DNA of 64,000 nucleotides from a virus (taxonomy: Duplodnaviria > Caudoviricetes): the IMG/VR virus record IMGVR_UViG_3300031857_000014. One strand, written 5' to 3'. Shown piece by piece: positions 26,549 to 46,271 of the stretch; positions within the stretch are counted from its first letter, which is position 1; every line of letters starts with the position of its first letter. Both the position numbers and the translations under genes were made by a program. The notes under the pieces are model-generated. The model saw nothing but the letters and a program-made list of their open reading frames with translations. It searched no databases and was not told the DNA's origin.

Positions 26549-27391
26549 TTAGAAAGGAAGTTCACCATCCACTTCATCATCTACCTGTGGATCTACTACT
26601 GCTGTTTTTGTTTGACCACCTAATGTTTCTTCTGATGTTGCGTTTGAAACATATTTTTTAGTTTCAGAATCCCATCTTGGATTTTCACCTTTCGCAATCA
26701 TTTCAAGATACTCTTCAGGTTTCTTAGAATAAACGTCATTCCATGTCAATTCATCCTCAATCCACTTTTTTGAAACTTCTGTATCTGTGTGAAGAGGTCC
26801 CGCATCTTCAGGGATAATAGAGTTAATTGTTGTATACTCTTTACCTGTACCTGCTTTAGTTAAAGACAAAGACAAAATCAAATCACGACCTTTCTCAACG
26901 TCTGTAACATTTCCTTTATTTCTCCAAATAGGTGCAATTTTATCAAATACACCATCACCTTTAGCGTTGTGTTTAAATCTCCAAAATTTTGGACCATCTT
27001 GTTCGTTCTCTCTATCAATAACTTTAACGATATAATATTTACGTGAACGATAATTTCTGGCCAATTCTTTATCTGATTCTACTCCGGTCATCATAAGACC
27101 TTCATAAACCTCATTTAAAGGAGAACGCTTACCTTCTTGTGCTGGGTCATATAATTTTACCCATTTACCATCAACCTGAACTTCGTGAAACTTAACTTCT
27201 ACGAAAGGGGATGAACCATCTTTAGTGGGAAGAATACGAATTCTTCTTTCTCCACTTCCTGAACCTTTAGGAAGTAATGTTGTGAAATACTTCTTCATTC
27301 TCTCTTCTTGAGAGACTTTACTACCGTTGCCGCTTGCGGCTTGTTTGTTTTTCTCGTATTGTGCTAATACGGGATCATTAATTTCTGCCAT
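26549..27391 (-). CDS. gp32: Single-stranded DNA-binding protein (T4 gp32-like)
   Basis: IRILP...PFVEVKFH, YYIVKVIDR, GRDLIL and acidic tail DDEVDGELPF. Sits beside recA. Confidence 0.85.
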   Translation of the reverse strand: MAEINDPVLAQYEKNKQAASGNGSKVSQEERMKKYFTTLLPKGSGSGERRIRILPTKDGSSPFVEVKFHEVQVDGKWVKLYDPAQEGKRSPLNEVYEGLMMTGVESDKELARNYRSRKYYIVKVIDRENEQDGPKFWRFKHNAKGDGVFDKIAPIWRNKGNVTDVEKGRDLILSLSLTKAGTGKEYTTINSIIPEDAGPLHTDTEVSKKWIEDELTWNDVYSKKPEEYLEMIAKGENPRWDSETKKYVSNATSEETLGGQTKTAVVDPQVDDEVDGELPF

Positions 27392-27435
27392 GTTAAAAAA
27401 TTTAAGTTAAAAAATGTTATGTATAAATTATAAAC

Positions 27436-27464
27436 AAAAAAAGTCAGATTATGAAATCTGACTT
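27436..27464 (-). terminator. Intrinsic terminator after the ferritin-like gene
   Basis: AAGTCAGATT-atga-AATCTGACTT perfect 10-bp stem with a T run on the minus strand. Confidence 0.7.
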
Positions 27465-34451: not shown

Positions 34452-34764
34452 AGTATAATGTATACAAATCCACGTTCTTTTTGTAGTCTTGTAGAGTAAC
34501 GACTAAAGGAAAAGGTATTCTAACGAAAGAATTATCAGGTATTTCAAATTCAACACTACCAAGTAAAGGATTCGCTTGTAAAATTAACCAACCAAATACC
34601 GGTGTACCATAATATTCTTGAGACAATTTATCAAGTCTATCTTTACCTTTTTTATATTGATAGTACCTATCTGTTCCTTTTATAGGTATTTCTATCCCCG
34701 GAACAATTCTAAATGTACCATCTTCTTCAAAATACTGATATCTATCAAAATAATTTCTACTCAT
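34438..34764 (-). CDS. LysM / gp53 / tail-X-like baseplate protein
   Basis: 108 aa. KDRLDKLSQEYYGTPVFGWLILQANP...IPDNSFVRIP. Confidence 0.8.
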   Translation of the reverse strand: MSRNYFDRYQYFEEDGTFRIVPGIEIPIKGTDRYYQYKKGKDRLDKLSQEYYGTPVFGWLILQANPLLGSVEFEIPDNSFVRIPFPLVVTLQDYKKNVDLYTLYYGKQ

Positions 34765-37700
34765 TAATTACCCTTTTTATAAAAATTAAGTTTATTGGTA
34801 ACACTAACTTTAGTTGATTTAAGATTTTTCACGTCTTGAACTTTTCCTGCATCTGTTATTTCTGTAGTACTTTGAACATTGAATTTTATTGTTTTACTAT
34901 TACCTCTCTTTTTGAATTTACTAAATTTAAAATTGTGGTCATTTGTTTTAGTATAAAAATCGTCCAATCTTTTTCTTAATTTTTTTCTCAAATTTTCAGT
35001 GAAAATTGTTGTGTCAGTTTCAAAAGTGTTTTTCATTAAATTGTCTCTATCTTTAATATCATTAAATAAAACTGACAGTACCGTTGTAAATTGTTGTGTT
35101 GTATAATTGGACGAATTATAATTTATTGACGTATCTAAATCAGTATATAATTTAGGTGTATTGTTAGTTATATATTCGACATTATTTTTATATTCATTAT
35201 ACAATTTATCATATGTAAAACCAGATAATGTTGCTTCAGTTACTTTATTTTTGTCTATTTTATAATCGTAAAAACCATATTTAACAATTACGTTAACTTT
35301 ATCAAACGCACTTATTAATTCGTCTCTTTTTGTTTCAAAATCTTCTAACACATTCTGTTCAACCATTTCATCAAATTTTGTTTGAAGAAACGATTCAATG
35401 TATGGTTGTAACAATTCATTCGCCTTGTCTTTCTTAGGACCTGTTAGTTCTTTGTCAAAACCAAATATTTGACATAAATCAGATGTTTTTGATATTGAAA
35501 TCATACCCGCTTTAATACCTCTAACAATTATTGATATATCACTTGTTTTAGGATATAAACCAAATAATTCAATTGTTTGTGGTGTATTTATGGTAGTATA
35601 AACATCGTAATCTTTTATTGTTCTATAATTATTTGAAAAGAAAACACTTCCTAAATTGTTACCATACTTTAATACAATTGTATTATACATACTTTCGTAT
35701 CCATTAAAATATGATTCTGTTTTTTCAAATACATTATCTATTAATTTGGTGAAATCTATTGTTCCTCCAGTAGTGTTAACTGTTTGAAATTCACCAATAT
35801 ATTCTCCTTCTTTAATTTCATTCTTACTATCTTCAGGTTGTGTATCAACTAACTTTTGTTGGTCTTTAAGTAATTCTTCTAAGAATTCTTTTGTAAATGT
35901 TTCTGCGTCTTGTCCCGCAATTTTACTATTTGTTGATATTGACCTTTCATCATAAATTTCGGTATTTGCGTAGAAATTAGACGATAACGCATTCTGTAAT
36001 CTTTCTACAGGTCTTTCTAAACCTTGACCACCAATAAAAGTTATTGAACAAGTAACGTTAGCAATCATAGGTTGTACACCAATACCTTCAGGATTTAAAT
36101 CCCAAACATTATCATCAAAAGTTATATTAACATCTTTAATTATTATTTTTGAATGATAAAAATCACCTATTCTTAAAACACAAAAAGGTGGTGGTCCAAA
36201 TGATGTATTTCTTGCATTAATATCATTTTTATCTGCAACTCCTTTAATTGGTATTGTATCACCAGGTCTAATACACTGATGTAAAAATGTTAATCTTGAA
36301 TTTAATCCTTCTGGTGTTGTTGAGTGAAAACCGGGATGAAAATATTTTAATTTTTCTCTTAACGACTTAAATGCCAATGGAGAATCTTCTTCCAATTTTT
36401 TAAAATAGTAACATTCAGAAAGAGTTTTCATAATGATTCTCTTCATTACATCAATTGGTGGTTTCTTTTTTGTTCCCGGAATAATACTAGTTTCAGTTTC
36501 AATTCTTGTTCTTGGTAATTCTGCCGGTGGGGGCGGAGGAGGTGGAGGTGCTGGAGTTGTTTTTGTATATTTAAATCCAACAATACTATGTCTACAATAA
36601 AATGCTGTCGGTGAAACTACTTTTAAACCTCCATTTGGACTTGTTATGTATTTGAAATCTTTATTTATACAATCACTACTTCTTGTTCCCCCATTATATA
36701 ATTCACCGTAACTTACTGTTTTTATTGTTACTTTACCTTTATTACCAACATAACCAAATTGTTCTAATGTATATTCTTTATCAATACTATTTATTACATT
36801 ATTTAATTTATCCTCGTTTATCCATTGTATATCAGGTACTGTACTTCCTGTTTTAATTCTATCAAAAAAATCTCTAATAACACTATGTGTTCTTCTAAGT
36901 GATAATTTATTATTATATGATTGTGTAGCAACAGATGATGTTGCCGATTCAATAAATAATTGAATATCTTTTACCGTATTATTAGCAATATCTTGTTTTA
37001 ATGTTTCTGTTTTAGCTGTGTATGAACTAAAGTTATTTGTAAACTCATCAAAATATTTTGTTAAAACATTTATTGTTTCTCCTGTTGCAGTTTCAATATT
37101 TGATACTGTCTCTGAACCAAAAAGTAATTTTTTATCGTTTTTTGCATTACTACTAGTTGCTGGAACTAATGAAACTATTGCATTTTGTAATCTAGTTAAA
37201 TAATCATTCTTTTTAGGTGCTAATTCATTGTATTCTTCTCCGTATGGTCTTCCTGCTGTTAAGCTAGTTCCTTTAGGAAAATCATTTTCATAATATAATG
37301 GTGTTGGTGATAATGTTACTGTTTCGTTACTACTGTTTTGTGTTGGTGTGTCACTAGGATTTTGAGTTGTAACAGGGTCCGTTACCGTTTTATATTTAAT
37401 TATTGTTTGAGGGTCAGTACCTTTATTTAAATATTGTTTTATTAATTCAATATCGTTACCATCTAATGTTGAAAATCTTCTAATTAAACCATAAAAATCA
37501 ACCTCTTCACATCCAGCAAAAAACGCATTTATATAATTGTCGGCTTCCTCATCTGACATATTTTTAAAATAATCTCTAACTAATAAATTTAAAATACTTG
37601 GGTGGTCAACAACAATTTTAAAACCTAATTGTCCTGTTCTTTCTGTATTTTGGTATGTATATATTGATTCAGGTCTACCCAAGAAAGTATTTGATTCCCA

Positions 37701-39524
37701 TCTTGCACTATTGTTTTCACTAACTTTTAAATCATATGGTGGAAACCACATTACCCTACCACCATTTGGTCCTCTTTCACAATATGGTAAATCTTGAACC
37801 ATAAATCCAGGTAATGTAGATGACTTCCACGCCAAGTTCTCTATTGAGAACATATATTTTTTAGCGTAAAAATCTTTACCATTAGCGTCTTTTACACCTC
37901 CCGCAACAATATTTGTAGATGATTTAAAATCATCATCTCTTAAACCATTTGACATCGGTGCAATATTTAAGTTCCATGGTTTACTTCCACCACCCATAAC
38001 ACTTGCATCGAATTTTCTGATAATCTCTGTTCTTTTCATTGTATCAGAATAATTCATATATGACCTGTCTTTGGTCCAAACTCTACAATATTCAACACCC
38101 GTTTCTTCTCCACTAAATTTATCAACGTACTTAATCGCAGAACCTCTTGACATCATCATATCACCTTCTCTAAACACCCTACTAGTTTGATCAATGACAT
38201 TCGCAACGTGAGAACGTGCTGCACCGCCATCTTTTGGCATTGTCTCAAGTAAATCTTGTGTTGTGCCTAATATTGAATCTCCTCTAAAACCAAATCTGGT
38301 TGATAAAGACTCTTCCAACTTTGAAGATTCGTCTGCATATTCTTTATTGTTTTCCCCTAATTTATTTTTTGATTTAGAACTAATCCATGTTAATTTACCT
38401 CCTATCGCACCACCTTCAGTTATATTTCTTTTTCCTTGAAAAAGTTTTGCTTGAACTTCGTCAAACATTAATGATAAAAAATAATTACTTCTTACTGGTC
38501 TATCATTAAAATCACCCATAGCAAATTTCACATCATCACTTCTATCATCACCAATATATGCTTCTCTTGAAGGTGCTTCTAAACCTAAAATAGATTTTAC
38601 TCCTTCGGCGACGTTATTAACAAAATTAAAAACCTTAGAAGATTGTTGTGATCTCGCTGTTGTTGTATAATCGGGTCCATATTTAGAAAAACCTAAATTA
38701 TTGAACAAATATTGTTTTTGTCCTTCACCCATATACTCAATGAATATATCAGATGGTTTTCTTGATAATTTTGGTCTTCTTTGTATACCTACGAGAGAAC
38801 CTAAAGCACCTGTAACGTCTTGTATTATTGCACCGAATTCTGTCCTTGCTTGTGGTCTATATTCAACAGGATTTGCAGGATTAGTTAAATAATCACCCGG
38901 GATTTCCGCAAAAGGAAATTCTACCCCCGCAACTGTTTGAAGAAAATCAATCGCTTTACCCGGTGCAGTGTTTGCAACAGTTATTTTATTGTTATATTCA
39001 ATTAAAGGTTCTCGACCAGTTACAATGTTTAACGCAGTTGCGGTGTTACCATTTAACGCATCTAATATTCTTGCTCTACCTATAGTCGCAGCTTCTAAGT
39101 TTTGTTGAACCCTTGCAAATACTGGTCCCTGTCTATTTTCTTTAATGTACTTTGCTGCGAATTTAAATAATTCACTTTCTGTGTCATAATTACCATTATT
39201 AGACATAATACCAATCAAATTATGGTCAGTAGGAAATTGAAAATAGGGGTATAATTGTAAATTCGCTCTTCTTGGTATAGTATCAATACTTTCTTTTATA
39301 AAATATTGATTTGGTTTAAAAATATTTTGAGTTTGGATAAAAGTTAAATCATTAACTCTATTTGTATCTACCGCACCAGGATCCACATTAGCGAAGTCAG
39401 ATAAATTCTGAACAATATAATTTTGGTCAGTAAAAGTCTGAGGTCCGTTGGGTTGTTGAAGTGTTCTACCTATCAAAAAATCCCTAAATCCCCTTGTTGT
39501 ATTAAAATCTAAATACGTTGGCAT
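34764..39524 (-). CDS. Large baseplate / tail-tube initiator protein with inserted OmpA-like domain
   Basis: 1586 aa. Two tube-initiator-like segments (FPPYDLKVSENNSARWESNTFLGRPESIYTYQNTER; PPFCVLRIGDFYHSKIIIKDVNITFD) flank SATSSVATQSYNNKLSLRRTHSV...VSYGE. Confidence 0.6.
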   Translation of the reverse strand: MPTYLDFNTTRGFRDFLIGRTLQQPNGPQTFTDQNYIVQNLSDFANVDPGAVDTNRVNDLTFIQTQNIFKPNQYFIKESIDTIPRRANLQLYPYFQFPTDHNLIGIMSNNGNYDTESELFKFAAKYIKENRQGPVFARVQQNLEAATIGRARILDALNGNTATALNIVTGREPLIEYNNKITVANTAPGKAIDFLQTVAGVEFPFAEIPGDYLTNPANPVEYRPQARTEFGAIIQDVTGALGSLVGIQRRPKLSRKPSDIFIEYMGEGQKQYLFNNLGFSKYGPDYTTTARSQQSSKVFNFVNNVAEGVKSILGLEAPSREAYIGDDRSDDVKFAMGDFNDRPVRSNYFLSLMFDEVQAKLFQGKRNITEGGAIGGKLTWISSKSKNKLGENNKEYADESSKLEESLSTRFGFRGDSILGTTQDLLETMPKDGGAARSHVANVIDQTSRVFREGDMMMSRGSAIKYVDKFSGEETGVEYCRVWTKDRSYMNYSDTMKRTEIIRKFDASVMGGGSKPWNLNIAPMSNGLRDDDFKSSTNIVAGGVKDANGKDFYAKKYMFSIENLAWKSSTLPGFMVQDLPYCERGPNGGRVMWFPPYDLKVSENNSARWESNTFLGRPESIYTYQNTERTGQLGFKIVVDHPSILNLLVRDYFKNMSDEEADNYINAFFAGCEEVDFYGLIRRFSTLDGNDIELIKQYLNKGTDPQTIIKYKTVTDPVTTQNPSDTPTQNSSNETVTLSPTPLYYENDFPKGTSLTAGRPYGEEYNELAPKKNDYLTRLQNAIVSLVPATSSNAKNDKKLLFGSETVSNIETATGETINVLTKYFDEFTNNFSSYTAKTETLKQDIANNTVKDIQLFIESATSSVATQSYNNKLSLRRTHSVIRDFFDRIKTGSTVPDIQWINEDKLNNVINSIDKEYTLEQFGYVGNKGKVTIKTVSYGELYNGGTRSSDCINKDFKYITSPNGGLKVVSPTAFYCRHSIVGFKYTKTTPAPPPPPPPPAELPRTRIETETSIIPGTKKKPPIDVMKRIIMKTLSECYYFKKLEEDSPLAFKSLREKLKYFHPGFHSTTPEGLNSRLTFLHQCIRPGDTIPIKGVADKNDINARNTSFGPPPFCVLRIGDFYHSKIIIKDVNITFDDNVWDLNPEGIGVQPMIANVTCSITFIGGQGLERPVERLQNALSSNFYANTEIYDERSISTNSKIAGQDAETFTKEFLEELLKDQQKLVDTQPEDSKNEIKEGEYIGEFQTVNTTGGTIDFTKLIDNVFEKTESYFNGYESMYNTIVLKYGNNLGSVFFSNNYRTIKDYDVYTTINTPQTIELFGLYPKTSDISIIVRGIKAGMISISKTSDLCQIFGFDKELTGPKKDKANELLQPYIESFLQTKFDEMVEQNVLEDFETKRDELISAFDKVNVIVKYGFYDYKIDKNKVTEATLSGFTYDKLYNEYKNNVEYITNNTPKLYTDLDTSINYNSSNYTTQQFTTVLSVLFNDIKDRDNLMKNTFETDTTIFTENLRKKLRKRLDDFYTKTNDHNFKFSKFKKRGNSKTIKFNVQSTTEITDAGKVQDVKNLKSTKVSVTNKLNFYKKGN

Positions 39525-39565: not shown

Positions 39566-41518
39566 TTACAAGTACAAGTAAGAACCAGGATTACCTACTT
39601 GTATTCTTTCATCACCCACTCTTACATCTATTTTAAAAAGATGTGGTTGTGCGTTATTTACCGGTGCTGTATTTGTATTTGTTGTTGTAGTGGTATTTGC
39701 TGCGGTAGTGGTATTCGTTGTTATTGGTGCTGCTGTTGTTGTTGGTTGAGCGACAGTACCTTGTTGTGTATTTGTATTTGTTGTTGGTGATTTTGTTGCA
39801 GCGCTACCTTTTGGTGTTTTACTTTTAATATATTTATTATTTGCATCAACAATTGCATCCGCAATCCCGGTCATCATATTTTTTACTTCCGGTGCTTCTT
39901 TAGTTGCGAATTTACTAAAATTATCTGCAGCCTTTTTAGGGTCTAACGGACCTCCCTTAACAAGTTCTTCATATAATTTATCCGCAGCTTTACCACCAGA
40001 CCTTCTTGCTAATGCAGCAAGGAAGTTTAAATCTCTTTCAATATTTGTAACAGAGTTTGCTTGGTCTCTAACTATTTGTTCAGGTGTTCTATCTTGTAAT
40101 TCTTTTTGATAAAATAATAATGTTTCTGCTTGTTTTTGCGATAAATTTTCTAACGCAATCTCTTTTGTGTCCTTATCTACACCTAACGCTTCTCTTATTC
40201 TATCACTATTTAATTCTATCATCATTTTACCACCCTTCATCTGAGAAATATTAGTTAGGAATTCTTTCTGTTCGTCTTTTAAATCTAAACCACTAGCCAT
40301 CATAGCAGCAGCTGCTGAAGTTCTTTCTGCGGAAGCAATTGCACCTTTTGCTAGTTCATCATAACTAACCCCTAATGCTTTAGCCATTTCTCTTGCTCTT
40401 CGTAAATTGACACCGGTAATTTCAAATCTACCTTGTTCTGCATTATATGTCGCTAAACTACTGGCGGCACCAATCAATGAATCTTGTAACCCTTCCACAT
40501 TATTTGTCGCCATGTACATTAATTTTAATGGGTCGTTAAAATCACCTATAGCACCACCTAATACTTGTAAGTTCGCGGCTAAATCAATTGCTCCTTCAGG
40601 ATTCATAACGCTTTCTGCAATCTTAAAAACTTCACTCATACTCATTCTGAATTCGGTTGCTTTTCTAATCATATTACCTAATCCTTCAATACCATTTTTA
40701 AAACCAAATTCATTTAATTTACCTATATTCTGTGATAATTCTTTCGTGGTGTTTTTTGATGAAAGACCTAATTGAAGTGATTTCATACCAACCTTTTCAA
40801 TCATTTCGACAGACTCTCTAGCTCCCATTCCAATATTCTCAAATCCAGGTAACATTCTAACTAATTCTTCTAAAGTACCTACGAACGCCTTTGCTGCAGT
40901 ACCTGCTTGTTTCCATGTTTCCGAATTTATAAATGCGAATTTACCCGAATCCCTCACCAAAACCTGAGATGACCTAACCAATTCATCAAACCCAATACCC
41001 ATTCTTAGTAACTCAGGATTTGCATCTGATAGTTCATTTCTTAAATCTTCCGCTAATTGACCGGTAACACCAATTTCTTCATTTACCTGAGTTCTTAATG
41101 CAGATTGTTGTTTCATGTATAGCTCCATGCTACTACCAAGTCCATCAATAATATTTTTACCAATTTGTTGTAAACTATTAACACCACCTTGTTTATCTAT
41201 TACCACATCAAGAAGATCAGTTATTTTAGTATATTCCTCAGTAATATTTGGTAATTGAGTACTACTTTGAGTTGCAATTCCTCCTCTAAATAATTTTGTT
41301 ACACCTTCAAAAACATTAGATGATTTAGTTGAAGTGGAGGTGGTTGATGTTGTTGTATTAAAACGACTAGTAATTTTCGCTTGTTCATCGGGTCTCATTC
41401 TTTCACCACTATTCCATTGATCTAATGCTCTTAGAAACGTGTTTGTTACTGAAGTTTCATCATTGTGTAAATAAAGATAATCATCTATTCTTGGTCTTGG
41501 TCCTTGTCCGTTTGCCAT
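39566..41518 (-). CDS. Tape measure-like protein
   Basis: 650 aa, predicted helical and Ala/Leu/Gly-rich (LAANLQVLGG). Canonical position after tube and chaperone genes. Confidence 0.7.
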   Translation of the reverse strand: MANGQGPRPRIDDYLYLHNDETSVTNTFLRALDQWNSGERMRPDEQAKITSRFNTTTSTTSTSTKSSNVFEGVTKLFRGGIATQSSTQLPNITEEYTKITDLLDVVIDKQGGVNSLQQIGKNIIDGLGSSMELYMKQQSALRTQVNEEIGVTGQLAEDLRNELSDANPELLRMGIGFDELVRSSQVLVRDSGKFAFINSETWKQAGTAAKAFVGTLEELVRMLPGFENIGMGARESVEMIEKVGMKSLQLGLSSKNTTKELSQNIGKLNEFGFKNGIEGLGNMIRKATEFRMSMSEVFKIAESVMNPEGAIDLAANLQVLGGAIGDFNDPLKLMYMATNNVEGLQDSLIGAASSLATYNAEQGRFEITGVNLRRAREMAKALGVSYDELAKGAIASAERTSAAAAMMASGLDLKDEQKEFLTNISQMKGGKMMIELNSDRIREALGVDKDTKEIALENLSQKQAETLLFYQKELQDRTPEQIVRDQANSVTNIERDLNFLAALARRSGGKAADKLYEELVKGGPLDPKKAADNFSKFATKEAPEVKNMMTGIADAIVDANNKYIKSKTPKGSAATKSPTTNTNTQQGTVAQPTTTAAPITTNTTTAANTTTTTNTNTAPVNNAQPHLFKIDVRVGDERIQVGNPGSYLYL

Positions 41519-41522
41519 AATA

Positions 41523-41672
41523 TTAACTATTTTCTAATTCTATCATATAATTTATATAATATCTTCTTATATAAATAGGCATAGAGAGAATATCTCCATA
41601 GGAGAATCCTCTTTTAATTAGAAATAAAATTTCGGTTAACTGGTTCTTTTTATATTCCGTAGAAAGGGCGAA
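41523..41672 (-). CDS. Predicted +1 frameshift extension of the tail assembly chaperone (G/GT-like)
   Basis: Reading frame FALSTEYKKNQLTEILFLIKRGFSYGDILSMPIYIRRYYINYMIELENS* opens just after an in-frame TAG and has no upstream start codon. It overlaps TTC_TTT_CGC of the chaperone and ends 4 nt before the tape measure ATG. Confidence 0.7.
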   Translation of the reverse strand, partial: FALSTEYKKNQLTEILFLIKRGFSYGDILSMPIYIRRYYINYMIELENS

Positions 41673-42399
41673 AGAATTCTACCCCAAATCCGATTACAAA
41701 TTGGATTTCTTCTCCTGATGGGGTTGTTGCTTTTTGGGTTAAATCTAACCCCGGTTTATTATCTGCAATAAATTTTCTAAAGTCCTGTGCATCTTTAATT
41801 GGTAGATTTTCAATTAAATTTCTGATATTCATTAAATCCTTATTTCCTGCAACCGATTTAATCATGAATTCAAGTTGTTTGGTCATAATCGGAGCATATC
41901 CATTACCATTCCAACTCTTTTGAATTTCTCTTATTTCCGCTTCTTGTTTTTGAGTCAAGAATTTGAAAGTAATATCTACTTTAGATTTTTCCATAAAATA
42001 TGAATATTCCCCATTTGCATCAGGTGTTAAATTGAAATCTTTAACTTTTAAAGTACTTAAATCTACTTTGGTTTCAAACTCTTTGTCTGTTTTCGGGTCA
42101 GTTAGTGTTACTGTATATTCTGAACCAAATGCGGTGTTTCTTAAAAAGATTAAAATCGCTTGTCTATCCTCTTCCGCCAATTCCTCAATTGAAATATCTT
42201 TATCCAAAATCTTTCTTTTCAAAAGTTCGGAGACTATCGCATTTGTTTGAATTAGGTTTGGTGCCGCTAAAATATTTTCGTCCGCTGCTGTTAGATATGC
42301 AACTCTAACTGATTTTTTTCCATTTGGATAATGAATACCTTTTGTTGGTAATTCTACCACATCATAAGAAATTGTTGGGTCTACTCTAAATTGTTCCAT
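41650..42399 (-). CDS. Tail assembly chaperone / baseplate hub assembly protein (T4 gp26-like)
   Basis: 249 aa. VELPTKGIHYP...VAYLTAADENIL, DRQAILIFLRNTAFGSEY, FGVEFFRP. Lies between tube and tape measure. Confidence 0.8.
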   Translation of the reverse strand: MEQFRVDPTISYDVVELPTKGIHYPNGKKSVRVAYLTAADENILAAPNLIQTNAIVSELLKRKILDKDISIEELAEEDRQAILIFLRNTAFGSEYTVTLTDPKTDKEFETKVDLSTLKVKDFNLTPDANGEYSYFMEKSKVDITFKFLTQKQEAEIREIQKSWNGNGYAPIMTKQLEFMIKSVAGNKDLMNIRNLIENLPIKDAQDFRKFIADNKPGLDLTQKATTPSGEEIQFVIGFGVEFFRPFYGI

Positions 42400-42405
42400 A
42401 GTATT

Positions 42406-42434
42406 AATTTAATCAATAACTATTGGAAAGTCAA
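42406..42434 (-). promoter_or_regulatory. Sigma70-like promoter TTGACT-N17-TAAATT
   Basis: Minus strand, just after the tube terminator. The -10 box is 6 nt before the chaperone ATG. Confidence 0.45.
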
Positions 42435-42448
42435 GTTTTTGATAAAAT

Positions 42449-42478
42449 AAAAAACCCCATGTGTTGAACATAGGGTTT
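42449..42478 (-). terminator. Intrinsic terminator after the tail tube gene
   Basis: Minus-strand AAACCCTATGT-tcaac-ACATGGGGTTT-TTT, with one U-G wobble valid only on this strand. Confidence 0.7.
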
Positions 42479-42498: not shown

Positions 42499-42987
42499 TT
42501 AGTAAACTAAGATACATCTATCTGGTCTCATTGAACAAGTGATAGTTGCCACATCATCTCTTGAATAATCAAGATCATTAAAGTTTAAGTCAGTAATGAA
42601 TGTACCTTGAAGTATCCATTTCTCAACCACAACACCAGTTGGGTCAAGCATTTCCAATTCAATGTCTTTTTTATAACCAGCAGCATAACCCATACGACCT
42701 GTAACAGATTCAGCGTGTAAACGGAACCATTCCATTAACGCCTGTGCCGCTGAAGGACCAATTGGGTCTTTGAAAGTTACTCTCATTTCATTCCATTCAA
42801 ATCTACCAGCAACATAAGTTGATGTATTGATAAATGGAATTGCAACAGAATTGATTTTTGCACTAGGTCTAGCCGTTGATGTCACATACCACTCGTTAAT
42901 ACCCAAAGATGATGGAAATCTAAGGATGAATCGGTTTACTCTTTTCGGTTCATATGGAACCGGCATTTTCATTAATAAATCTGCCAT
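42499..42987 (-). CDS. gp19: Tail tube protein (T4 gp19-like)
   Basis: NRFILRF...RPSAKINSVAIPFINTSTYVAGRFEWNEMRVTFKDPI...YKKDIELEMLDPTG. Confidence 0.92.
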   Translation of the reverse strand: MADLLMKMPVPYEPKRVNRFILRFPSSLGINEWYVTSTARPSAKINSVAIPFINTSTYVAGRFEWNEMRVTFKDPIGPSAAQALMEWFRLHAESVTGRMGYAAGYKKDIELEMLDPTGVVVEKWILQGTFITDLNFNDLDYSRDDVATITCSMRPDRCILVY

Positions 42988-43364: not shown

Positions 43365-46271
43365 TTATATATTCTCAAATGAAGCACCAGTCGGAGTTAT
43401 ATTGAATTCAATCTCAATAAATTCAAGAGACCTAGTTGGTTTTAAGTAAATCTTTCCTCTCAATGTGTTTGCATCTAAATCCTCTGGATCACTAGACACT
43501 CTTACACGGAAATCGTAAAGACCTCTTTCTTTCTTTATAGACTCAAGAATAGGATTTACTAATCTCAAGAACTCTTGTCTTACTTGTTCGTCATTTTGTT
43601 CAAATAACAACCTTACAGATACCGCAGAAATCAATTTTCTTGCTCTCAACAATAATCTTCTAACATTAATTCTATCTAATGCAGATTCTCTTAATTGAAG
43701 AGTTTTATTACCCCAAATAATTGTACCTGTATCTGAGAATGTTGCGATAGGGTTAATTCTGTTTGAATATAAGGTGTCTCTTTCATCTAATGTAAGTTTC
43801 TTATTCGCTTTAATTGATTTAACAAGACCTCTTGAATAACCTGCAACTGCGAACCAAGGATACGATACATTATCGGTTAACGCAATATTTCTAACAACTT
43901 CACCTGTAGGCGGGATGTATAATTGTGTTGCGTTGTCTGTATCTCTAACCTGTATCCACGGCCAGTATGTCGCTGAATAGTTACTATCAATTGCGGAATC
44001 GTCAATCGCAGCAACTACTTCTTCAACACCTTCAGCACCAGTGAAATTAGGAGAGTTCATAATATATAATGAATCCGCTCTATCTTCTTCAATCATTTCT
44101 ATCGCTTGGTTAACCAATGAACTATGATCGTAGAAATTAATACCTGGTGTAGCGAATACATTTATATCAACCGCTTCAGGATTTTCAAATGTTTGAATAC
44201 CTTGAAGATACGCATAATAGTCAGAATTACCATTATTAACATCAAATACACCGCCATTATTTTGATTATTTGCGTTATATGTTGGTTTACCATAAATGTA
44301 ACCATCACCATAAGTTCTAACATTTCTATAGATATCCCAACCATCAAAACCACCACCAGCAGCAAATGTAAATTTACGATATCTGATGTCAGTTAATTTA
44401 TCTCCTACTGGTTGACCCTCCAAATCGTATGGAGTTGTAATATATGTGGTACCTGAAATTGTTGATGCGTTTACAGATAAGTGGAAACCAGATGTGGATG
44501 AAGTACCTTCAGCACCTTTATATTTAAATAAATCATTATCATATCTTGAACCTGTCTGATTTGATAAACCTAAAGATACTTTTCTTACTTTATCTCCATT
44601 TGATAATACCGCGGTACCATCAGCGTCATAATACATTGTATCGCCAGCATCAAAGTATTCTGTTTTATACAAAACATTACCTAAAGTACCACCACCAAAT
44701 GTTTGATTATTTACGAATCCTTTAAAACCAGCAGGGAATGCATCAACAGGTGCGTTATCTGCTATAGATAACATAATTAACTTAGAACGTAATTCATAGT
44801 CACCATTTGATGTACCTATTTTTTTAGCGACATAACCTGGTAAATCAGGATTCATACTACATCTTGAATATTTTTCTAAAACAACAGGATTATCATCAGT
44901 ATCATAGTAATCACGAACCAATAAATCAAAATCACCATTATCCAAATTAATATTAGCTATTTGAATTTTAACTGTGTAGTTTGCACTTTCACCATCAGGT
45001 ATTGTTATAATTTCAAACAAATCTGCAACTTTACCACCTCTAACCTCTGAAACAACCATTGGTGTTATCGGAGATAACCATTGACTCATAAAGTTTTCTG
45101 ATTCTGAATTTACAACTTTTGTTAAACTTAAACCTCTAACATATCCTTTTTGAAATGCAGATTGTAAGAATTTAGGGTATGCCTCATGAACGTATATTGG
45201 ATAGTCTGTTCTTGGTTTATCAAACACATCACTTCCCAAAACTTTAGTTATGTATTTTGAAGATGTTTGATCCATGGAACAAGTGAATTGTTTTGCACCA
45301 CCTGTTGTACCCGTTACGTTAATTATAAATTCTGCTAATGGATTTGTAGTAACACCACTTAAATCATCAATATCGAAACGAGATGAAAGAAATGTTTCAA
45401 GACTTAATGTGTTTTGTTGATAGAGACCTCTACTTCTAAGTGCAGCAACTATTAAATCTTTATACTGTGTTAACTCACCTGCATCGTATTTGAATCTAGC
45501 CACATCAAAATATCCATTTTGTGCGTCATATGCAAAAAGATAAGAATAAACACCATCAACATTTCCACTACCATCAAAAGATAAAAGTTTGTTTATCCAT
45601 TCTTTACCGTTAGGACTATCATCAGTATAAAACCCATTAAGTGGGGAAACTTGTTCAATTCCAAATAAAGATGATAATTCGGTAATCGCATTACCATCCA
45701 AATCGGTAACAATATATGCACCTAAATCAGGTACTAATCCCATAGTAAACCAGTTACCATCTTCAGAAGCACCATATCCACCAAAATTTGTTTCAATGTA
45801 ATCTGTTATTGTTGTTCCTTCAAATGAGAATATATTTGAAAGTTCATTATAAAAAATACTTGATGATGGGTTAGATGGGTCCATAGAGTCCACTACTAAA
45901 CTAGTATGTGCACTTGTATCTGCGGTAACACCAGCTAATGTTTGTATACCAAATGTTGTTGTTGGTTTATATCCAGTTAAACCAAGAATTCTTGTTACGA
46001 ATAGTTGGTTTGATTCTTCTAGATACGATTTAGCAACATACGGTAATTCATATTTTGGATTATCTGCACCGTCTTTTACAGGTGTAGTACTTCCAAAGTA
46101 TACTTTGAATTCATCAAAATTGGTAATTAATATTGGTTCAAATGCGGGACCCTTCAATGTCTCACCAACCAATCCGAGTGTTGTAACACCAACACTTTGT
46201 GCTACGAATGTTAAATCTTTCTCTGAGGTATATACACCGGGAGAAACGAATACTTTGTTTGAATTTGCCAT
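43365..46271 (-). CDS. gp18: Contractile tail sheath protein (T4 gp18-like)
   Basis: 968 aa. FVSPGVYTSEKDLT, GETLKGPAFEPI, INVFATPG, SNYSATYWPWI, PWFAVAGYSRG, LDRINVRRLL, PTRSLEFIEIEF. Confidence 0.97.
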   Translation of the reverse strand: MANSNKVFVSPGVYTSEKDLTFVAQSVGVTTLGLVGETLKGPAFEPILITNFDEFKVYFGSTTPVKDGADNPKYELPYVAKSYLEESNQLFVTRILGLTGYKPTTTFGIQTLAGVTADTSAHTSLVVDSMDPSNPSSSIFYNELSNIFSFEGTTITDYIETNFGGYGASEDGNWFTMGLVPDLGAYIVTDLDGNAITELSSLFGIEQVSPLNGFYTDDSPNGKEWINKLLSFDGSGNVDGVYSYLFAYDAQNGYFDVARFKYDAGELTQYKDLIVAALRSRGLYQQNTLSLETFLSSRFDIDDLSGVTTNPLAEFIINVTGTTGGAKQFTCSMDQTSSKYITKVLGSDVFDKPRTDYPIYVHEAYPKFLQSAFQKGYVRGLSLTKVVNSESENFMSQWLSPITPMVVSEVRGGKVADLFEIITIPDGESANYTVKIQIANINLDNGDFDLLVRDYYDTDDNPVVLEKYSRCSMNPDLPGYVAKKIGTSNGDYELRSKLIMLSIADNAPVDAFPAGFKGFVNNQTFGGGTLGNVLYKTEYFDAGDTMYYDADGTAVLSNGDKVRKVSLGLSNQTGSRYDNDLFKYKGAEGTSSTSGFHLSVNASTISGTTYITTPYDLEGQPVGDKLTDIRYRKFTFAAGGGFDGWDIYRNVRTYGDGYIYGKPTYNANNQNNGGVFDVNNGNSDYYAYLQGIQTFENPEAVDINVFATPGINFYDHSSLVNQAIEMIEEDRADSLYIMNSPNFTGAEGVEEVVAAIDDSAIDSNYSATYWPWIQVRDTDNATQLYIPPTGEVVRNIALTDNVSYPWFAVAGYSRGLVKSIKANKKLTLDERDTLYSNRINPIATFSDTGTIIWGNKTLQLRESALDRINVRRLLLRARKLISAVSVRLLFEQNDEQVRQEFLRLVNPILESIKKERGLYDFRVRVSSDPEDLDANTLRGKIYLKPTRSLEFIEIEFNITPTGASFENI

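Follow-up and report, generated by a model that had tools for sequence, protein, structure and literature searches.

A conserved +1 reading frame behind a T4 gp26/gp51-type tail chaperone gene as a candidate site of programmed ribosomal frameshifting in a freshwater giant phage

The stretch of 64,000 nucleotides (nt) analysed here, called the window in the following, comes from a tailed virus of the Caudoviricetes (IMG/VR record IMGVR_UViG_3300031857_000014). The source is a freshwater giant phage whose genome is probably about 300 kb long, because its record of 141,857 bp has a CheckV completeness estimate of 43%. On the minus strand of the window, an open reading frame (ORF) of 249 amino acids (aa), related to the T4 hub and tail assembly proteins gp26 and gp51, is overlapped at its 3′ end by a second ORF in the +1 frame. 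The overlapping pair sits between the tail tube gene and a tape-measure-like gene, and annotated relatives have an equal gene order. An earlier note, made from the sequence letters alone, had proposed that a programmed +1 ribosomal frameshift joins the two ORFs into a long form of a tail chaperone; we analysed this proposal by comparison with related loci, profile searches and structure prediction. The features of the locus are as follows.

42499..42987, minus strand: tail tube gene, directly upstream of the chaperone gene (phrog_4542 tail tube, E 1.4e-25)
41650..42399, minus strand: frame-0 ORF of 249 aa for the short form, a gp26-like protein of hub/tail assembly (PF12322, phrog_150)
41679..41681, minus strand: TAG closing the +1 frame just upstream of the shift site
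41678..41523, minus strand: +1 ORF with 51 open codons
41668..41676, minus strand: proposed shift site UUC_UUU_CGC (conserved in-frame TTT, then T/C)
41526..41669, minus strand: +1 extension of 48 codons (ALSTEYKK...IELENS; selection in the +1 frame, homology to the tail of protein P0287)
41523..41525, minus strand: TAA that ends the +1 extension, with 4 nt between it and the next ATG (41518)
39566..41518, minus strand: tape-measure-like gene of 650 aa, directly downstream (by position and weak similarity to the tape measure protein of phage immuto)

Re-read on the minus strand, the 249-aa ORF ends with GAA TTC TTT CGC CCT TTC TAC GGA ATA TAA, identical to the earlier reading, and the short form accordingly has the C-terminus ...GVEFFRPFYGI. 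The +1 frame opens right after an in-frame TAG (41681-41679), as had been described, and this upstream TAG limits the region available for a shift to only 10 codons. The first ATG, GTG or TTG of the +1 ORF is codon 33 (the M of SMPIY) and not codon 31, so that this detail of the note had to be corrected, whereas the 48-aa extension does end 4 nt before the downstream ATG (TAA at 41525-41523, ATG at 41518). Conceptual translation with a +1 shift at TTT_C gave a 291-aa product beside the 249-aa one, both lengths matching those foreseen. The overlapping -1 heptamer C_CCT_TTC leads only to a short tail, again as expected, with a stop after 8 further codons. From the GC content of 30.8%, the chance of a 51-codon open frame is estimated at about 0.02; given this value and the recurrence of the arrangement in 236 of 236 related loci (see below), it is beyond chance.

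To describe the relatives, we used 240 viral contigs from three sub-families and counted the 236 loci with a complete 3′ end. In each of these 236 loci the homologue of the extension lies in the +1 frame, and in none of them is it in frame 0 or the -1 frame. Microcystis phage Mel-JY01 and Flavobacterium phage immuto, whose proteins are about 30% identical to the window protein, share the layout and have an overlapping +1 ORF homologous to the window extension, including the (M/F)PI..R+Y motif. In seven more distant records, namely SP-15 and HSE3 (Bacillus), LIS04 (deposited as a Listeria phage and classified in the SP-15 species), GXN1 (Streptococcus), phiXF1 (Xanthomonas), RM378 (Rhodothermus) and LR756508 (a 484-kb uncultured phage), a +1 ORF begins at the EFF motif and ends shortly before the next gene; together with Mel-JY01 and immuto, these form our set of nine distant records. 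None of the phage genome records examined annotates a joined coding sequence, and where the extension is annotated (Mel-JY01, immuto, SP-15, HSE3 and RM378), it appears as one or more genes for small hypothetical proteins. Scans of the viral contigs seeded with the SP-15 and phiXF1 proteins yielded no new loci. A search of open-access full texts found no paper on a frameshift in gp26/gp51-like genes; as it covers the open-access literature only, it does not prove that the event is undescribed.

The +1 ORF has no conserved start codon among these relatives. Upstream of the site, 79 of the 236 loci are devoid of ATG, GTG and TTG, and an ATG is found in only 66, while the conserved +1 protein sequence already starts within the overlap (L2 and Y6 of the extension alignment). 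In a separate observation on nucleotide conservation, positions 41647-41695 are the sole stretch (49 nt) where the match of the window to lake and river metagenome contigs from other related phages reaches ≥90%, and the summed contig depth there (run X4) is about 10-13 times that of the flanks; this segment around the shift site is a nucleotide-level conservation island.

Selection was analysed across the junction in 52 distinct sequences of the window's clade. Before codon 242, variation falls mainly on frame-0 third positions; codons 242-248 hardly vary, even at synonymous sites; and after codon 249 variation is concentrated at frame-0 first positions, which are the third positions of the +1 frame. 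Pairwise differences in the extension at +1 codon positions 1/2/3 amount to 11.3/7.9/20.1, a pattern by which the extension is under purifying selection as +1-frame coding sequence. The place of the change can be narrowed down further with the Pro codon CCT that follows the Phe codons: its third base is invariant in 236 of 236 loci, and the base after it takes all four values, which are synonymous in the +1 Leu codon CTN and amino-acid-changing in frame 0. As the third base of CCT is fixed and the next base free, selection passes from frame 0 to the +1 frame within these few codons; as the invariant third base fits translation as the +1 Leu codon CTN, the shift would lie upstream of CCT.

A further small feature lies upstream of the site. 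The run GGGG at 41682-41685 (minus strand) consists of the Gly239 codon GGG and the first G of the next codon and lies 8 nt upstream of the slippery TTT. The synonymous third base of Gly239 is the same in all 52 clade sequences, even though GGG is seldom used for Gly here and Gly237 varies freely. The run could pair with the CCCU just after the site in a small hairpin, or act as an internal Shine-Dalgarno-like element.

The aligned 12-mers at the Phe-Phe motif of the 236 loci were distributed as follows.

TTT TTT TGG CCT: 114 loci
TTT TTT CGC CCT: 47 loci
TTT CTT TGG CCT: 34 loci
TTT TTT CGT CCT: 27 loci
TTT CTA TGG CCT: 4 loci
CTT TTT TGG CCT: 3 loci
TTC TTT CGC CCT: 2 loci (the window and L077)
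TTT TTT TAC CCT: 2 loci
TTT TTT CGA CCT: 1 locus
TTT TTT TTC CCT: 1 locus
TTT CTT TAC CCT: 1 locus

In all 236 loci, one of the aligned pair of Phe/Leu codons is an in-frame TTT with T or C after it, and an in-frame TTT followed by T or C is also present in all nine distant records. Given the variants TTC TTT CGC, TTT CTT TGG and TTT CTA TGG, a slip of tRNA-Phe from UUU to UUY is the only one that is possible everywhere. TTT_CGN is present in all 77 loci of the window's clade (78 in the 12-mer census), and TTC TTT CGT was found in Bacillus phage HSE3 and Streptococcus phage GXN1. The codon after TTT varies among CGC, CGT and CGA within the clade, retaining the frame-0 Arg and changing the first +1 residue among Ala, Val and Asp, which fits selection on the frame-0 codon itself. 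The earlier remark that CGC is rare, with Arg encoded mostly by AGA, holds for the whole 141.9-kb record (4 CGC versus 1,080 AGA in 43,058 codons); in the codon usage of the phage itself no sense codon is rarer than CGC, also within the window (2 of 19,237), and the TTT_CGC at the site is the only in-frame copy in the whole record.

The 249-aa protein matches the Pfam family PF12322 (T4_baseplate) with 47.3 bits against a cutoff of 24.5, residues 24-243 aligning to profile positions 9-218 of 219. The match thus ends at residue 243, the second Phe of the EFF motif. It also matches phrog_150 “baseplate hub” (E 1.2e-14), and a word-indexed search returned 2,891 homologues. On these matches the protein belongs to the T4 gp26/gp51 family and is not a homologue of lambda G/T. 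An AlphaFold2 model of the fusion comprises a domain at residues 10-239 with a predicted local distance difference test score (pLDDT) above 90, a disordered linker (residues 240-254) that spans the junction and an extension of three helices with pLDDT 64-76. The fold matches of this model in BFVD are gp26/gp51-like baseplate hub assembly proteins, and Foldseek retrieved no match from PDB at E ≤ 0.001. For the extension itself, a profile search against PDB gave no match, and neither did Pfam and PHROG with the isolated extensions of six phages. The predicted complex of the extension with the tube protein scored 0.00, a value that weighs neither for nor against binding. One of the BFVD matches, A0A8S5RZL9 (430 aa), spans the full model and may be a further natural fusion.

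The 291-aa fusion was searched against 1.84 billion representative proteins, giving 1,700 matches (representative clusters). Among the best 150 of the 1,700 matches, 148 alignments end at residue 243 ± 2, that is, at the Phe-Phe junction. One of the two exceptions is P0287, a natural long paralogue of 304 aa encoded by a single ORF on six groundwater contigs. The fusion aligns to it in a single high-scoring segment pair that runs through the junction (residues 10-287, E 3e-51), and a profile of 59 extensions aligns to its C-terminal tail with an hhalign probability of 97.3% (E 2.4e-11). The P0287 gene follows a gene for a 273-aa PF12322 paralogue ending in ...AKLFWPNSDID (tandem pair, locus L254), whose Phe-Trp-Pro ending is as in the frame-0 products of the frameshift family. 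The P0287 lineage therefore encodes what by homology are the short and long forms as two genes, which is the arrangement of T4 genes 26 and 51.

The relation to T4 itself was addressed with several profile comparisons. Coverage of phrog_150 is 14-235 for T4 gp26, 13-280 for gp51, 11-233 for the window short form and 11-264 for the fusion, which gains 4 bits. The window short form thus matches PF12322 and phrog_150 over the span of gp26 (208 aa), and the fusion extends the phrog_150 match into the part held only by gp51 (249 aa). In profile–profile comparisons with 36 gp51 homologues, the N-terminal domain reached E 0.0072, and the extension was collinear with the gp51 tail at a non-significant E of 0.053. 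The family hidden Markov model and hhalign gave no significant match to the single T4 gp26, gp51 and gp28 sequences. The correspondence of the two forms to gp26 and gp51 is accordingly supported through P0287 and is marginal against T4 itself. The T4 proteins also differ in two respects: they are encoded by two genes, neither of which adjoins the tape measure gene 29, and T4 gp51 homologues have the invariant cysteines C85, C88, C185 and C186, whereas the window protein has no zinc-ribbon cysteines. These have been lost in the window's clade (residues ~100-106 and 223-231) and kept in T4 gp26/gp51, SP-15 and P0287; CPKC and CEFC of P0287 align with DPKT and a Cys-free stretch of the window protein. 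Precomputed annotation lists the newer Pfam family PF28602.1 beside PF12322 on T4 gp51 homologues, and this family may model the gp51 tail. The T4 gp28 gene (L243:8349-8882) is situated directly upstream of the tape measure gene 29, and T4 gp26 weakly matches the gp28 family phrog_1140 (E 0.00094), so that gp28 may be a third member of the gp26/gp51 chaperone group.

The conserved +1 protein, the lack of a conserved start and the universal TTT followed by T or C lend comparative support to the proposed programmed +1 shift. Of the refuting conditions given in the earlier note, three were checked, namely a +1 ORF that is not conserved, a start codon of its own and an assembly indel, and none of them was borne out. 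We estimate the probability that a programmed shift into the +1 frame yields 249-aa and 291-aa forms at roughly 80%. Granted such a +1 shift, it is likely that tRNA-Phe moves from UUU to UUC with CGC as a hungry A-site codon. Most ribosomes would then read frame 0 to the TAA and release the 249-aa gp26-like short form. A fraction would pause with peptidyl-tRNA-Phe on UUU (41673-41671) and the rare CGC (41670-41668) in the vacant A site. The tRNA-Phe would re-pair one base forward on UUC (41672-41670), C 41670 would be skipped as first codon base, and decoding would resume at GCC in the +1 frame, giving the 291-aa long form ...GVEFF-ALSTEYKK...ELENS. Its extra 48 residues would constitute a short helical tail on a flexible linker, and the two products would be the counterparts of the short and long paralogues for which some relatives have separate genes (T4 26/51, the L254 tandem). 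By their position and by analogy with T4 and lambda, the two forms would be chaperones for hub and tape-measure assembly, the short form serving as bulk chaperone and the helical tail of the long form recruiting a partner. Directly visible in the sequences are how the frames are arranged and conserved, the change of the selected frame, the rarity of CGC and the homology of the fusion with a natural single-ORF protein; that ribosomes shift here, at which codon and how frequently, and what the tail binds, we infer.

Several observations weigh against this interpretation. The rare-codon argument is weakened because the rarity of CGC refers to the codon usage of the phage only; the phage record contains no tRNA genes. 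In most relatives the codon after TTT is neither rare nor a stop (TGG, CTT, CTA, CAC, AGT), and in the Bacillus and Streptococcus hosts of HSE3 and GXN1 CGT should not be a rare codon. The family as a whole yielded no shared stimulator. RNA folding revealed no significant structure around the site or 3′ of it (z -0.6), and Rfam gave no match; the lack of a stimulatory structure is usual for +1 sites of this kind. The codon with which the +1 frame would begin, GCC, is uncommon as well (30 of 19,237 codons). Finally, about one in four of the extension variants listed for the clade has TAT in place of TAC, which creates a +1-frame ATG three codons past the site. As an observation of its own, the phage encodes a homologue of ribosomal protein bS21 outside the window (record position 27299-27445, PF01165, 34.2 bits). 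In Flavobacterium johnsoniae an altered bS21 raises +1 frameshifting at prfB (PMC10798248), and it is a speculative thought that the phage bS21 could affect the UUU_CGC site.

The fusion could be made by another slip, either a -2 shift on the U-rich run or a +1 shift of tRNA-Pro at CCU_U two codons later. -2 shifts presenting as +1 have been described at GUU_UUU in the PRFect paper (PMC10274946). In most relatives the site has six or seven T (TTT TTT T/C), on which -2 re-pairing of tRNA-Phe would be perfect as well. In the window (TTC TTT CGC), however, the -2 slip would leave tRNA-Phe facing UCU, mismatched at the middle base, and the same is true for the immuto-type sites TTT CTT and TTT CTA. 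As to tRNA-Pro, the Phe codons of HSE3, GXN1 and phiXF1 are followed by CCC_A, CCC_C or CCC_TAA, which are classical +1 sites of this tRNA; CCC_TAA of phiXF1, with its Pro codon before a stop, presumably resembles the site type of Listeria phage PSA. CCY_N is nevertheless absent from SP-15, LIS04 and RM378, in contrast to the universal TTT followed by T or C, and the invariant third base of CCT in the 236 loci puts the shift upstream of that codon. We regard these other slips as unlikely. The predicted tryptic junction peptides differ: for the +1 shift at UUU_C the peptide ends in ...GVEFFALSTEYK (...VEFFALSTEYK), for the -2 slip it is ...VEFFFALSTEYK, and for the +1 shift at CCU_U it is ...VEFFRPSTEYK.

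We consider it still less probable that the +1 ORF is translated separately, without any frameshift, as a protein of 19-48 aa through a non-canonical start or reinitiation. The annotators of Mel-JY01, immuto, SP-15, HSE3 and RM378 did call separate small genes, some clade members have an ATG (TCT ATG GAA) just past the site, and start sites are hard to exclude in hosts that do not use Shine-Dalgarno sequences. But the window offers no ATG, GTG or TTG before codon 33, and 79 of the 236 loci offer none upstream of the site. The conserved protein sequence moreover begins inside the overlap, a free-standing gene would not need the constant +1 relation, and in the natural homologue P0287 domain and tail are fused in one protein.

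Slippage of RNA polymerase along the T run, by which one U would be dropped in some transcripts so that the fusion is encoded in frame, is a very improbable source of the long form. T runs of six or seven can support transcriptional slippage (PMC5009743), and seven T are present in 114 of the 236 relatives and six T followed by C in 75. The window sequence is however TTCTTTC, with three T as the longest run, and 39 immuto-type loci have TTTCTT or TTTCTA; since there is no long T run in either, a homopolymer mechanism fails there, and the arrangement is still kept.

That the frames are broken by an error of assembly or sequencing, or by decay of the gene, has a negligible probability, as the arrangement is kept in 236 loci under purifying selection, one contig from an independent study spans 41300-41927 without any difference to the window, and another independent contig at depth 16 spans 41300-42457 with four substitutions and no indel. 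An assembly error is excluded by these contigs from two other studies, which have no indels at the site. Two database proteins, P0128 and P0225, do have the extension fused in frame. In P0128 precisely the C of CGC is missing (TTT TTT GCC CTT, L252:1390-1400), but its contig has a second indel that splits the gene; in this Logan contig from a close relative the missing C is likely an error, the alternative being a natural variant that is always fused. P0225 stems from a 963-bp scaffold (L257) that contains Ns; its site is intact, and 9 codons upstream of it there is an indel. Of the raw reads of run X22 none mapped to the phage, and no RNA runs holding the phage were found.

Frameshifting of tail assembly chaperones is well known, and what would be new is the proposed +1 version in the gp26/gp51 family. 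The conserved chaperone frameshift of long-tailed phages was described by Xu, Hendrix and Duda (2004), here as cited in PMC5009743, where G-T frameshifting is described as conserved in long-tailed phages “except T4”. As with lambda gpG/gpGT, two overlapping ORFs lie between the tube and tape measure genes of the window, the second ORF lacks a start, a short abundant and a C-terminally extended product are predicted, and the arrangement is kept despite low sequence similarity. In contrast to lambda, the shift would be +1 instead of -1, there is no X_XXY_YYZ heptamer in register, and the window protein is no homologue of gpG/gpT, PF12322 being its sole Pfam match and a match to a solved fold being absent. 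The G/GT-like pair of the earlier note is supported in its logic of a short and a long form.

The second comparison made there, to UUU_CGN +1 sites, concerns influenza A PA-X (UCC_UUU_CGU) and amalgaviruses (PMC5009743). Common to these and the window site are a P-site tRNA-Phe that would move from UUU to UUC, a CGN Arg codon in the A site, which in the window is rare by the phage's codon usage, and the lack of an evident stimulatory structure. Unlike the window site, which lies in the message of a double-stranded DNA phage read by bacterial ribosomes, they are sites of eukaryotic viruses read by 80S ribosomes. The rare CGN is limited to the window's clade, where TTT_CGN is kept; in most relatives the codon after TTT is TGG, CTT or another. 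For tailed viruses, PMC5009743 and the reference list of PMC9024508 name +1 shifts in structural genes of Listeria phage PSA and in the tail chaperone of the haloarchaeal myovirus HSTV-2. These are alike in that a +1 shift serves structural or tail-assembly genes and unlike in that other protein families are involved.

We lean towards the view that a bare UUU_Y +1 shift, with no need of a stop codon, Shine-Dalgarno sequence or RNA structure, is both ancient and obligatory in gp26/gp51-type chaperone genes. Myoviruses of Bacteroidota, Cyanobacteria, Firmicutes, Xanthomonas and Rhodothermus would all have retained it, and it would be interchangeable with the T4-like two-gene solution. In general, programmed +1 frameshifts are rare in bacteria and their viruses, and the textbook case, prfB, depends on a stop codon. 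The window site differs from prfB (CUU_UGA with an upstream Shine-Dalgarno sequence at 3 nt) in that its A-site codon is the sense codon CGC and its nearest G run is the GGGG 8 nt upstream of the TTT codon. If the view is right, the shift would be the most widespread +1 programmed frameshift known in bacterial viruses, serving a large, diverse and environmentally abundant group of contractile-tailed phages. It would explain the apparent exception of T4 to the tail-chaperone frameshift rule, tying the gp26/gp51 pair to a general rule of a short form and a frameshift-extended long form. It would also provide natural material on the forward shift of bacterial ribosomes at a bare UUU_Y, including those of hosts that ignore Shine-Dalgarno sequences. 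The annotation of all phage records examined would need correction, as the ORFs are unjoined and the extension is missed or entered as a tiny hypothetical protein.

Two further genes complete the gene order of the window around the features listed above.

46271..43365, minus strand: sheath gene (from the gene order of the window)
39524..34764, minus strand: ORF of 1586 aa (from the gene order of the window)

The 650-aa protein is regarded as tape-measure-like by its place in the order sheath, tube, chaperone, extension and tape measure, as in immuto and SP-15; it has no Pfam match, and its similarity to the tape measure protein of immuto is weak (E 0.004). An NCBIfam scan of the fusion, the tape-measure-like protein and the 1586-aa protein gave no match. 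No promoter or terminator beyond chance was detected between the chaperone and the +1 ORF. Between the tube and chaperone genes there is a terminator-like hairpin (42452-42478, minus strand) with 11 pairs followed by a T run, and the SP-15 record annotates a rho-independent terminator at the equivalent place. This hairpin may lower the expression of the chaperone and tape measure genes relative to that of the tube gene.

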